From: Escherichia coli
GTDB taxonomy: Bacteria > Pseudomonadota > Gammaproteobacteria > Enterobacterales > Enterobacteriaceae
Assembly (NCBI RefSeq): GCF_003334255.1
Contig: NZ_QOWU01000034.1
Direction: 5' to 3' (one strand)
Length of the DNA stretch: 56,700 nt
A model generated the notes under the pieces. It saw nothing but the letters and a program-made list of their open reading frames with translations, made no database searches and was not told the DNA's origin. Position 1 is the first letter of the stretch. Each line of letters opens with the position of its first letter. This document shows, in pieces, positions 18,241-24,020 of this stretch. The position numbers and the translations under genes are program-made.

Positions 18241-18923
18241 AGGTCAGCCCTCTTCACACCCACGGAGTAGCGGCGCTCAAGGAACAGCAGCACACCATTG
18301 GAAACAGTGGTGAAAACCAGGTAAATCACGCCACAGACGATGGCGAAATAGAACGGTTCCCAGGTACTTTTGCCTGCCAGTTGGGTGGCTTTGACCACAT
18401 CTTCCAGGCCGAGTAACGAAACCAGTGCGGTAGATTTGAGGATCACCTGCCAGTTGTTGCCAATGCCTGGCAGGGCGTAACGCATCATCGACGGAAACAT
18501 GATCCGCCGAAACACTTGCCCACGAGTAAAACCGAACGCCGTCGCCGCCTCTATATGTCCTTTCGGCACTGCCATAAAAGCACCACGGAACGTTTCGGTA
18601 AAATAAGCACCGTAGATAAAACCGAGAGTGATAATACCAGCGACCATCGGATCGATATCAATCTGCCCGACGCCCATCGCCTCCGTCACCGTGTTTAGCG
18701 CAATCTGCAAACCGTAGAAAATCAGCAGCATCAACACTAAGTCCGGCACGCCACGAATCAGCGTGGTGTACCCTTCGAAAATCAGCCCCGAAAGCCGATT
18801 TTGCGAGAGCTTACCGCCAGCGCCAATTAAACCGATGATTACAGCGAGCACTACAGAGCTGATAGCCAGCTCCAGCGTGACGAGCGCACCCTGTAAAATA
18901 ACACCTGAAAACCCATACAACAT
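18237..18923 (-). CDS. hisQ: Histidine ABC transporter permease
   Basis: 228-aa ABC permease; part of hisJQMP. Confidence 0.93.
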   Translation of the reverse strand: MLYGFSGVILQGALVTLELAISSVVLAVIIGLIGAGGKLSQNRLSGLIFEGYTTLIRGVPDLVLMLLIFYGLQIALNTVTEAMGVGQIDIDPMVAGIITLGFIYGAYFTETFRGAFMAVPKGHIEAATAFGFTRGQVFRRIMFPSMMRYALPGIGNNWQVILKSTALVSLLGLEDVVKATQLAGKSTWEPFYFAIVCGVIYLVFTTVSNGVLLFLERRYSVGVKRADL

Positions 18924-18964
18924 GCTGCCTGTCCTGTCGTGTGTGGTGAATTACCGCCTCTTGT

Positions 18965-18988
18965 CTCCCTCCGGTTACCCGAAGGGAG
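18965..18988 (-). promoter_or_regulatory. Intercistronic hisJ-hisQ stem-loop (REP-like mRNA-stabilising hairpin)
   Basis: ctccctccgg-ttac-ccgaagggag near-perfect inverted repeat between the hisJ stop and hisQ start; the homologous Salmonella interval is the classic intercistronic palindrome. Confidence 0.6.
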
Positions 18989-19012
18989 CGGGCTTTCTTT
19001 CACCGATGGCGA

Positions 19013-19795
19013 TTAGCCACCATAAACATCAAAATCGAAGTACTTTTTCGCTAATTTCTCGTAAGTACCGTCAGCGCGCATTTCGGCAAAGGCTTTGTTC
19101 AGTGCTTCGCGCAGTTCGTTATCTTCTTTACGCAGGCCCATGCCGGTCCCTACGCCAAACAGTTTTTCATCTTTAACAGACGGGCCACCGAATTTGTAAT
19201 CTTTACCGACAGGTTGTTTGAGGAAACCTTCGCTGGCAGCGACCTCATCCTGGAACGCGGCATCAATACGTCCGGCAGTCAGGTCAGAATAAATGTTGTC
19301 CTGCCCCTGATACGAGACGATTTCAATGCCTTTTGGTGCCCAATGTTCATTACCGAACGTCTCCTGGGTGGTGCCCTGCAATACGCCTACCCGTTTGCCT
19401 TTCAGCGACTCGACTGTCGGCTGAATGTCAGAATTTTTCGCCACCACCAAACGAGAATCGGCAGCGTACAGTTTGTCGGTGAAGGCTATTTCTTGCTGAC
19501 GTTTTTCCGTAATGGAAAGCGATGACATGATGGCGTCAATCTTCTTCGCTTTTAAGGACGGGATTAACGCATCCAGCGGATTTTCGACAAACGTACATTG
19601 CGTATTGATGCGTTTGCATAATTCCTTTGCCAGATCGATATCGAAGCCAACCAGTTCGCCTTGTGAATTTTTTGATTCAAATGGCGCATAGGTCGGGTCG
19701 GTACCGATGCGGATGTTTTGCGGAATCGCAGCAAACGCCGCAGTTGCGCTGGAGAAGGCCAGAACCAGAGAGAGCGATAGCACCAGTTTTTTCAT
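19013..19795 (-). CDS. hisJ: Histidine-binding periplasmic protein
   Basis: 260-aa ORF with signal peptide and periplasmic binding-protein fold; paralogous to argT immediately upstream. Confidence 0.95.
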
Positions 19796-20015
19796 AATGT
19801 CCTCAACTGACAGTCTTTTTATAGGGAATATTTACAGGTTTGTTACACTTATCGTGCCATAAAATTGACCATCAAGGCAAAATATCCCGCCCCGTTAGAC
19901 GTATTATTTTTCATTAAAAATGCTTAAGTATGCATTTCAATGCACCACGATAGTGCAACAAACCTGGCGTGCACCATGATGATCATTCCATCAGGTACAG
20001 CTTCCCAGCGACGTA

Positions 20016-20798
20016 TCAGTCACCGTAGACATTAAAGTCGAAATACTTTTTCGCCATCTTGTCGTAGGTGCCGTCCTGACGCAGCTCGCCAAGCGCCTTA
20101 TTGAAGGCAGCCGTCAGTTCAGCATCATCTTTACGTAGCCCTACACCGGTGCCATCACCGAAGTATTTTTTGTCTTTTACTGATGAGCCAGCAAAGGCGA
20201 AATCTTTACCAGCAGGTTGCTTGAGGAATCCTTCGCTGGCAGCAACTTCATCTTGTAACGCAGCATCCAGACGTCCTGCAGCCAGATCGGAATAGACCAA
20301 ATCCTGGTTGGCATAGGCCACCACATCCACGCCTTTACTACGCCAGGTCTCGTTAGCGTAAGCTTCCTGGGTTGATCCCTGCAGCACACCAACATGTTTA
20401 CCTTTCAGTGAATCCAGCGTTGGCTGAATCGGTGAACCTTTGGCCGCAATCAAACGAGAATCTGCGGCGTACAGCTTGTCGGAGAAGGCAATCTCCTGCT
20501 GACGTTTATCGGTAATGGAAAGCGACGAAATAATAGCGTCGATTTTTTTCGCTTTCAGTGAGGGGATCAGCGCGTCAAAGTCACTGGCAACCCAGGTACA
20601 TTTCACCTGCATCCGTTTGCACATCTCGTTACCGAGATCGATATCAAAGCCAACAAAATCACCTTTAGCATCTTTCGATGAGAACGGTGCGTAGGTGGTA
20701 TCGGTTCCGATACGTACCGTCTCCGGTAGCGCCGCATAGCTGGAAGCCGCTGTGGAGAGACCGACTAACAAAGACAGAGCGAGAATCGACTTCTTCAT
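20016..20798 (-). CDS. argT: Lysine/arginine/ornithine-binding periplasmic protein
   Basis: 260-aa ORF, signal peptide, closely similar to HisJ; recognised as ArgT. Confidence 0.95.
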
Positions 20799-20866
20799 AC
20801 ATAACCCTCAAGTGAAAATGGCTTTTTTATGTTGTGTATTGTGTTGTGTGTTTGCAGGCTCTTTCA

Positions 20867-20882
20867 TGCAGGTCTTATGCCA
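20867..20882 (-). promoter_or_regulatory. Sigma54 (-24/-12) promoter for argT
   Basis: Minus-strand TGGCATAAGACCTGCA: GG and GC separated by exactly 10 nt, matching TGGCAC-N5-TTGCA; about 70 nt upstream of the argT ATG. Confidence 0.7.
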
Positions 20883-21029
20883 TCTTGACGACAACAGTAA
20901 CATTCAACGTTAAATATGTTAATAAGACGTTGCATTATTGTCCTGAAGTTGAAGATAGCAGGTATAGCGGTTGAATCGCAGCGTTTCGATTGAATGGCAG
21001 AAACAAAATGTCGAGGATTTGATCGCGGT

Positions 21030-21056
21030 TGCAAAATTGCCCTGAAACAGGGCAAC
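21030..21056 (-). terminator. Rho-independent terminator after ubiX
   Basis: Minus-strand ttgccctgtttcagggcaa hairpin followed by ttttgc, directly after the ubiX stop. Confidence 0.8.
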
Positions 21057-21063
21057 AGCGGAG

Positions 21064-21633
21064 TTATGCGCCCTGCCAGCGGGCAAAGAGATCTTCAGGA
21101 AGGGTTATCGCAAACTGGTCAAGAACACGATTAACCGTCTGATTTATCACATCATCAAGGGATTGCGGGCGATGATAAAACGCCGGAACGGGAGGCATAA
21201 TCACCGCACCGATTTCTGCCGCCTGAGTCATTAAACGCAGATGGCCTAAGTGCAATGGTGTTTCACGCACGCAGAGCACCAACGGGCGACGCTCTTTCAG
21301 CACCACATCTGCCGCACGGGTCAGTAAGCCATCAGTATAGCTATGGACAATGCCGGAAAGGGTTTTGATTGAACAGGGTAAAATCACCATCCCCAGCGTC
21401 TGGAAAGAACCGGAAGAGATGCTGGCGGCAATATCGCGCGCATCGTGCGTGACATCGGCTAATGCCTGCACTTCGCGCAGAGAAAAATCCGTTTCGAGGG
21501 ATAAGGTCTGGCGCGCTGCCTGGCTCATCACCAGATGCGTTTCGATATCTGTGACATCGCGCAGAACCTGTAATAAGCGCACGCCATAAATCGCGCCGCT
21601 GGCACCGCTGATGCCTACAATGAGTCGTTTCAT
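21064..21633 (-). CDS. ubiX: Flavin prenyltransferase UbiX
   Basis: 189-aa flavoprotein ORF with N-terminal GISGASG motif. Confidence 0.93.
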   Translation of the reverse strand: MKRLIVGISGASGAIYGVRLLQVLRDVTDIETHLVMSQAARQTLSLETDFSLREVQALADVTHDARDIAASISSGSFQTLGMVILPCSIKTLSGIVHSYTDGLLTRAADVVLKERRPLVLCVRETPLHLGHLRLMTQAAEIGAVIMPPVPAFYHRPQSLDDVINQTVNRVLDQFAITLPEDLFARWQGA

Positions 21634-23842: not shown

Positions 23843-23904
23843 AGGGATTTCCTTCCCGCGCATCAATAAAAATGGCGCTGAAAAAATATTCAACGCCATC
23901 GACT

Positions 23905-24020
23905 TTTTATGCCTTTGCGGCATCGGGCAATGCGTGTCGGATGCGGCGTAAACGCCTTATCCGACCTACGGTTCTACCCCTGCGTAGGCCTGATAAGACG
24001 CGCCAGCGTCGCATCAGGCA
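23905..24020. repeat. BIME/REP cluster
   Basis: Tandem inverted REP units (gccggatgcggcgtaaacgccttatccgacctac ... gtaggcctgataagacgcgccagcgtcgcatcaggc) between dedD and cvpA. Confidence 0.8.

Follow-up and report, generated by a model that had tools for sequence, protein, structure and literature searches.

Sigma-70 and sigma-54-type promoter signals on the same bases upstream of hisJQMP in Escherichia coli

The hisJQMP operon and the adjacent argT gene are among the earliest models of nitrogen-regulated transport, and databases credit sigma-54 control to the argT promoter, argTp, only. The strongest binding of NtrC in the locus lies in front of hisJ, which raises the question of whether NtrC acts there, on the distant argTp, or on both. 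We examined a stretch of 56,700 nt of E. coli DNA (contig NZ_QOWU01000034.1 of assembly GCF_003334255.1), referred to below as the window, which contains the genes in the order hisP-hisM-hisQ-hisJ-argT-ubiX-purF, all on the minus strand. A first-pass annotation had pointed to the minus-strand 17-mer TGGCACGATAAGTGTAA (TGGCAC with GT instead of GC), about 50 nt upstream of the hisJ ATG, and had proposed two readings: a weak sigma-54 promoter through which hisJQMP and argT share nitrogen control, or a fortuitous match beside a sigma-70 promoter. Its sequence and position were given exactly, and the distance from the 3' end of the element to the A of the ATG is 48 nt. The results presented below show that this 17-mer is the core of the sigma-70 promoter of hisJ, PhisJ, and that it is also an ancestral sigma-54 element, superimposed on the working sigma-70 promoter and probably weak or silent in E. 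coli. The coordinates of the features are given in Table 1; window positions equal those of NC_000913.3 minus 2,406,993, or those of NC_000913.2/U00096.2 minus 2,405,015. The hisJ and argT sequences match E. coli at 100% and correspond to MG1655 b2309 and b2310, and the 401 bp around the element, which are 100% identical to many E. coli chromosomes, were found in all 5,426 complete genomes.

Kim et al. 2012 (PMC3415461, supplement) list a single start for hisJ, at position 2424859 of the minus strand, with a 49-nt 5' untranslated region and an upstream sequence that ends in TGGCACGATAAGTGTA. The corresponding A is located 7 nt after a CACGAT hexamer with TG at -15/-14, so that PhisJ displays a -35-like box, a spacer within 16-19 bp, the TGn motif, A and T at hexamer positions 2 and 6, and a start 6-8 nt past the -10. 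In agreement with this, the Charlier group (PMC6640053) reported that a sigma-70 promoter drives hisJQMP during growth. As TG plus CACGAT form the extended -10 and the mapped A19844 lies inside the 17-mer, the element is not located next to a sigma-70 promoter, as had been suggested, but on the same DNA. A sigma-54-type start would be expected about 12 nt after the -12, at ~19833. Because A19844 is 11 nt upstream of that position, the mapped start is not a sigma-54 start; the study concerned did not target nitrogen limitation. The start of Klebsiella KPN_02699 was not found in the available part of the same supplement.

A peak of the RpoD holoenzyme obtained by genomic systematic evolution of ligands by exponential enrichment (gSELEX) has been reported within the hisJ/argT spacer. 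The hisJQMP promoter printed in that paper, TTGAAA-16-TTTAAT, is at odds with the mapped start and shares sequence with the ARG boxes, and we judged it to be an in silico pick. We also rejected GATAAG (19853-48) as the -10, as the start is only 3 nt away and the spacer to the conserved -35 would have to be 21 bp long. PhisJ was missed by a generic sigma-70 scan that applies stricter rules to the hexamers, because the promoter relies on TG and has a weak -10 hexamer; given the mapped start, we did not count this miss against PhisJ. Two 18-bp boxes located 17 bp upstream of the hisJ -35 are the target of ArgR, which causes weak repression, also in pure in vitro transcription (PMC6640053). In agreement with this, the tandem ARG boxes predicted here end exactly 17 bp before TTGCCT. 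They form a conserved block in alignment A1 and share second rank among the tandem ARG-box matches of the window. The best such match, at 23877-23915 upstream of cvpA (7 mismatches at 32 specified positions), is slightly above the hisJ operator and could be due to chance in AT-rich DNA.

By itself, the sigma-54-type motif is not significant. The element has GG at 19858/19857 and, at the correct spacing of 10 bp, GT at 19846/19845 in place of the consensus GC. For the pattern TGGCAC-N7-GT, chance predicts 1.99 occurrences in the window, and 84 of 100 shuffles contained it at least once; TGGCAC-N5-TTGCW with two mismatches gave 27 matches in the window, the element included, versus 39 expected. 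A position-specific scoring matrix (PSSM) trained on 26 accepted Salmonella sigma-54 promoters, whose training scores range from 16.4 to 24.1 bits, gave the hisJ element a sub-threshold 10.5 bits, and unrelated positions in the window score alike. Unable to tell a site from chance, the pattern counts and the PSSM were discarded as support for the element. Its non-randomness derives from context and conservation.

A protein-guided scan of Enterobacteriaceae yielded 80 hisJ loci, spread over about 30 genera; 79 of these loci were usable. TGGCAC or TGGCAT was present within 130 nt upstream of the hisJ ATG in 74 of the 79, TGGCAC itself being located 63-72 nt upstream, and 58 loci contained the canonical GC at the exact sigma-54 -12 spacing, as exemplified by Citrobacter and Franconibacter (TGGCACGATAACTGCA), Atlantibacter (TGGCACGATACGTGCT), Mangrovibacter (TGGCACAGAATCTGCT) and Buttiauxella (TGGCATGGAACATGCA). 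GT at this position was limited to six loci, all five of Escherichia plus Pluralibacter, and ten loci had other dinucleotides (Klebsiella pneumoniae, Raoultella, some Enterobacter, Pseudescherichia and others). In a conservation profile weighted by 24 genus-level groups, the GC columns 13 and 14 reached ~1.15 bits versus 0.1-0.4 at columns 12 and 16, which is a sigma-54 signature. The caveat applies that GCA also fits a pyrimidine(-1)/A(+1) sigma-70 start, so that this GC signal may be partly shared; column 15, the A at the sigma-70 start, reached 0.86 bits. The sigma-70 signature is present in the same profile: TTTGCC (-35) is invariant or nearly so at a fixed spacing, TG and A2/T6 of the -10 hexamer are invariant, and the final T is kept in CACGAT and in the Enterobacter-type CACATT alike.

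Upstream of the element, NtrC-like sites with at most three mismatches were found in essentially all loci. Their distances from the T of the -24 box (74 loci) were 88, 110, 139 and 151 bp, i.e. whole helical turns, and the best site averaged 1.7-2.4 mismatches versus 6.8 in a coding-sequence control. Together, these comparisons show that a sigma-54-type -24/-12 element with an NtrC enhancer, orthologous to the 17-mer, is conserved family-wide. Some loci differ in this region. About 85 nt upstream of hisJ, Dryocola and Enterobacter sp. R1 (loci L034 and L064) contain TGGCATAAAACCTGCA and TGGCATGAAACCTGCA, respectively, which resemble the argT type more than the usual hisJ type. In the Cedecea group (L051, L052 and L055) the NtrC site is kept and there is no TGGCAY, TTCGCA-N5-TTGCG being present instead.

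In E. coli, the centre of the high-affinity NtrC site TGCACCACGATAGTGCA is located 90 bp upstream of the T of TGGCAC and ~116 bp upstream of the predicted sigma-54 start, which is within the ~80-150 bp typical of an enhancer. Only the GGTGCA half of the second NtrC-like site is conserved, and its GGTGC is invariant in alignment A1. Chromatin immunoprecipitation sequencing (ChIP-seq) of NtrC in nitrogen-starved cells by Brown et al. 2014 (PMC4066584) gave a peak at 2424941-2425021 that was assigned to hisJQMP (23.7-fold), and a visually added peak upstream of argT (5.4-fold). The former corresponds to window positions 19926-20006 and contains TGCACCACGATAGTGCA. This shows that NtrC occupies the E. 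coli hisJ enhancer in vivo under inducing conditions. The hisJ/argT spacer is not included in the NtrC-alone gSELEX list of Shimada et al. 2021 (PMC8743547). Alignment A1 shows that the stretch from the NtrC site to ARG box 1 is shorter in Escherichia by about 21 bp, or two helical turns. This gap, at ~19937-19940 (A1 columns 118-138), preserves the helical phase of the remaining NtrC site, and in Kosakonia, Pseudocitrobacter and others the stretch carries a further NtrC-like site.

These results bear on the second proposal of the first-pass annotation, a chance resemblance in which TGGCAC is owed to the sigma-70 extended -10 only and was never linked to sigma-54. The bare pattern, with about two matches expected in the window, and the equalled PSSM score agree with it, and the sigma-70 reading accounts for the TG, the A and the T. 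However, an extended -10 does not need all six bases of TGGCAC, and chance leaves unexplained the GC located 10 bp after GG in the 58 loci, the Buttiauxella-type TGGCAT-N5-ATGCA, and the phased upstream NtrC sites, NtrC being stated to activate sigma-54 promoters only (Brown et al. 2014). Together with the fixed position of TGGCAY and the in vivo occupancy by NtrC, this contradicts a chance match, which we consider very improbable indeed.

We then have to ask whether the element is active. It is possible, though on balance doubtful, that it is a working weak NtrC-dependent sigma-54 promoter with its start at ~19833, at which phosphorylated NtrC (NtrC~P) would loop from 19941-19957, ArgR may help to bend the DNA, and sigma-70 would serve nitrogen-replete growth. 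The geometry is that of a textbook sigma-54 promoter, with the NtrC site occupied in nitrogen-starved cells, and Brown et al. 2014 found RNA polymerase at all 21 NtrC-associated promoters and induction of all 21 units. Moreover, the module is kept family-wide, the NtrC site being retained in Escherichia despite the change at -12, binding of sigma-54 in vivo is on record for promoters that have T or A at -12 (see below), and the 60-nt promoter core is identical in 5,401 of 5,422 E. coli genomes. The sigma-70 promoter accounts equally well for this last conservation, however, and the only mapped start lies inside the element.

Published data on binding of sigma-54 also argue against an active promoter. 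The intergenic sigma-54 ChIP-seq sites of Bonocora et al. 2015 (PMC4591121) pass from atoD (2321425) directly to argT (2425886), and hisJ is absent from the text and supplements of that study. The RpoN gSELEX of Shimada et al. 2021 (PMC8743547), with or without NtrC, gave a peak at argT only and none at hisJ, and Zhao 2010 mentions neither hisJ nor argT. Both ChIP-seq and gSELEX detect sites with weak motifs, although under the conditions used sigma-70 RNA polymerase may occupy the hisJ site. In Salmonella Typhimurium, hisJ (STM2354, 'dhuA') has TGGCACGATAGTCGCATC at the orthologous position; its first 10 bases, TGGCACGATA, are the same as in E. coli, and it keeps the GC at -12 where E. coli has GT. 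In addition, Salmonella contains ~21 bp more than E. coli between the NtrC site and the ARG boxes, and in two Salmonella subspecies the NtrC site is located 111 bp upstream, with no mismatches in L021 and two in L022. Samuels et al. 2013 (PMC3844500) included STM2354 hisJ among 27 PSSM sequences as a predicted sigma-54 promoter, and footnoted it as 'not an active promoter', citing a 1985 paper. The Salmonella hisJ open reading frame was neither enriched in chromatin immunoprecipitation on microarrays nor induced by the promiscuous activator DctD250; only argT was induced (PMC3844500).

Overlap of the two promoters would also permit an opposite role, in which the element is a negative docking site for the sigma-54 holoenzyme, its complex, which remains closed until activated, competing with the sigma-70 holoenzyme over the same 17 bp and damping PhisJ. 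The overlap is complete, and such competition has been described for glmY/glmZ of Salmonella, for relA P4/P2 and for several E. coli promoters, argT among them. In the RNA-seq data of Schaefer et al. 2015 (PMC4551910), hisJ was 6-fold lower with wild-type sigma-54 (109 reads per kilobase per million, RPKM) than with the deltaRI form (651 RPKM) or without sigma-54 (703 RPKM). This drop is not evidence of direct repression, because argT, hisM, hisP and many unrelated genes (e.g. aceA, adhE and alaA) shift alike, perhaps for physiological reasons or through read-through from argT. Furthermore, PMC4551910 does not list hisJ among the sites with a ChIP-seq sigma-54 motif, and it ties C at -12 to silencing, this base being absent from activator-bypass promoters; all its repressive sites have C at -12, which the hisJ element lacks. 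With no binding of sigma-54 detected at hisJ by ChIP-seq or gSELEX, we regard this role as quite improbable.

As for nitrogen control itself, hisJQMP is induced by nitrogen starvation and belongs to the NtrC regulon. Read-through from argTp would give the same result, so that dependence of PhisJ on rpoN or on an activator is not implied. The argTp promoter (also argTr) is site OS22 of the sigma-54 ChIP-seq study PMC4591121, coincides with an RpoN gSELEX peak, and is conserved in all loci examined. A search for terminators between argT and hisJ revealed weak hairpins only, none of them convincing, and read-through therefore stays plausible; argT-hisJQMP is handled as one unit in the literature (PMC8743547 among the sources). 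In E. coli the upstream NtrC sites of argTp itself are poor, and its NtrC ChIP signal is below that of hisJ. At 21038-21054 (minus strand), 10 nt past the ubiX stop codon, TGCCCTGTTTCAGGGCA followed by AATTTT resembles a ubiX terminator hairpin. At this position, 164 bp upstream of the argT -24, Klebsiella, Raoultella and Pseudocitrobacter have good NtrC sites. E. coli argTp thus has no good proximal NtrC site, which fits the weak NtrC ChIP signal.

The explanation that we favour, with somewhat better than even confidence, is that the hisJQMP promoter core ('dhuA') combines a sigma-70 promoter and a degraded NtrC/sigma-54 promoter on the same bases, and that read-through from argTp provides most of the nitrogen induction. 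The TTGCCT -35 and the TG/CACGAT extended -10 drive the sigma-70 start at A19844, with ArgR repressing weakly from just upstream, and the comparison of loci shows that an ancestral sigma-54 promoter dependent on NtrC has the same TGGCAC as its -24 box. Within Escherichia, the C of the -12 would have changed to T and ~21 bp with a second NtrC site would have been deleted. The remaining element probably binds the sigma-54 holoenzyme too weakly for detection and may be a minor promoter at most, nitrogen induction of hisJQMP in E. coli presumably being mainly due to read-through from the sigma-54 promoter argTp. The NtrC site between argT and hisJ could then be an enhancer for whichever sigma-54 promoter is within reach. 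With respect to the weak sigma-54 promoter proposed in the first-pass annotation, nitrogen control and sigma-54 ancestry are thus supported by the family-wide comparison and the NtrC ChIP-seq data, whereas the published evidence on its activity as a sigma-54 promoter is negative.

Several observations weigh against this explanation. The NtrC site is near-perfect in every Escherichia species examined, and NtrC binds more strongly there than upstream of argT; a strong site so retained is hard to explain if the nearest sigma-54 target is dead. NtrC sites are at least as good in loci without the -12 GC (mean of 1.69 mismatches) as in loci with it (2.38), which indicates that function may tolerate a poor -12. 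In agreement with this, sigma-54 promoters without C at -12 that are positive in ChIP exist, namely pspA, pspG, Salmonella hydN and E. coli hydN. In addition, the negative ChIP-seq results were obtained where sigma-70 RNA polymerase may sit on the same DNA, and the source for an inactive Salmonella promoter is the footnote to the 1985 paper. Retention of the NtrC site could mean either that the hisJ promoter is weakly live or that the site acts at a distance on argTp. It is established that NtrC enhancers can act across about a kilobase, as reported by Reitzer and Magasanik in 1986.

A further possibility, which we consider rather unlikely, is that the locus is a conserved two-sigma switch, in which the sigma-54 promoter coincides with the sigma-70 extended -10 promoter at every base. 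The two holoenzymes would compete for one 17-bp site as cells pass between nitrogen-replete and nitrogen-limited conditions, with ArgR bending the DNA in the manner proposed for astC. The C-to-T change in Escherichia would retune the switch, by weakening or de-silencing it, and would not kill it, and the NtrC site would also enhance argTp ~0.9 kb away, the upstream sites of which have decayed in E. coli.

Much of this picture was already in the literature: the sigma-54-like sequence of Salmonella hisJ, NtrC at hisJQMP of E. coli, nitrogen control of the operon, and the sigma-70/ArgR promoter. The present analysis adds that the two promoters share their bases, that the module is family-wide, and that the -12 has decayed in several lineages without decay of the enhancer. 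It also adds that, of the 79 loci, only those of Escherichia and Pluralibacter have the GT lesion at -12. No new kind of element is revealed. The natural decay of the -12 beside a retained enhancer, by C-to-T in Escherichia and by different changes in Klebsiella and Enterobacter, would be useful for studying the tolerance of sigma-54 promoters at this position.

Table 1. Features of the hisJ upstream region and of argTp, in window coordinates.
Feature	Position	Strand	Remarks
hisJ coding sequence, first gene of hisJQMP	19013..19795	-	ATG at 19795
Sigma-54-type -24/-12 element TGGCACGATAAGTGTAA	19843..19859	-	From sequence; orthologous position conserved
hisJ transcription start (A), experimentally mapped	19844	-	NC_000913.2 2424859; PMC3415461 supplement
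PhisJ extended -10	19851..19859	-	TG 19859-58, n 19857, CACGAT 19856-51; from start-site geometry
PhisJ -35, TTGCCT	19875..19880	-	18-bp spacer to the -10; near-invariant across genera
Tandem ARG boxes (ArgR operator) AATGCATACTTAAGCATT, 3 bp, AATGAAAAATAATACGTC	19898..19936	-	Predicted; between NtrC site and core
High-affinity NtrC site TGCACCACGATAGTGCA	19941..19957		1 mismatch to TGCACCA-N3-TGGTGCA; 0.01 expected by chance
Second, weaker NtrC-like site	19970..19986	-	4 mismatches; centre ~119 bp upstream of TGGCAC
argT sigma-54 promoter (argTp/argTr) TGGCATAAGACCTGCA	20867..20882	-	~1.02 kb upstream of the hisJ element

Other observations concern the operon downstream of the promoter and the remainder of the window. 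An Rfam search of positions 18800-21100 revealed no known RNA element at E<=1. The hisJ-hisQ spacer (18924-19012, minus strand) contains the GC-rich hairpin GCTCCCTTCGGGTAACCGGAGGGAG, which is not a canonical repetitive extragenic palindromic (REP) sequence; this spacer is free of the REP-like GCCGGATGCGGCG motifs that other parts of the window contain. In RNA-seq tables hisJ is several-fold above hisM and hisP, which is consistent with attenuation after hisJ. Two further sigma-54-like sequences were observed. The second-best PSSM match of the window, TGGCACAACATCCGCATG at 42049-42066 (plus strand), lies in sense orientation inside smrB near its 3' end; its 15.9 bits are near the 16.4 bits of argTp, and it may belong to the numerous sigma-54 sites known to lie within E. 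coli genes. The other, TGGCACCTTGGGTGCA at 54011-54026 (minus strand), has one mismatch to the sigma-54 consensus, is located ~70 bp upstream of yfcZ facing this gene, and coincides with reported gSELEX peaks of the RpoN holoenzyme and of NtrC in the yfcZ/fadL spacer.

Comparison with known systems places the hisJ element as follows. In the same locus it is comparable to argTp, which is likewise controlled by NtrC, is of the TGGCAY-N5-nTGCA type and serves the paralogous binding-protein gene of the same transporter. Unlike the hisJ element, argTp keeps the GC, and sigma-54 ChIP-seq, gSELEX and expression all detect it. With respect to the -12, the hisJ element resembles the promoters of pspA (TGGCACGCAAATTGTAT), pspG, Salmonella hydN (TGGCACGATTCGTGTATA) and E. 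coli hydN (CTGGCATGATTTGTGAA), which have T or A in place of C, their -12 regions being TTGTA, TTGTA, GTGTA and GTGAA, respectively; Salmonella hydN is identical to the E. coli hisJ element at 14 of 18 positions. These promoters are ChIP-positive and activator-dependent, unlike the hisJ element so far, and in pspA and pspG the GT follows a T-tract, which is missing from hisJ (AAGTGT).

The superposition at hisJ resembles the overlapping, mutually excluding sigma-70/sigma-54 promoters of glmY/glmZ in Salmonella and of relA P2/P4 in E. coli. In those systems binding of sigma-54 and activator-dependent starts have been demonstrated, whereas at hisJ only a sigma-70 start is on record. A further parallel concerns the order of the control sites. 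The control region of astCADBE is reported (Kiupakis and Reitzer 2002) to contain NtrC sites, ArgR sites and a sigma-54 promoter in this order. hisJ displays the same order of NtrC enhancer, ARG boxes and -24/-12 element, and both are arginine-related nitrogen-scavenging operons. At astC, ArgR is reported to aid activation of a proven sigma-54 promoter. At hisJ, the one role described for ArgR is weak repression of the sigma-70 promoter (PMC6640053). Both astC and hisJ are NtrC targets in the ChIP-seq data of Brown et al. 2014 (PMC4066584).

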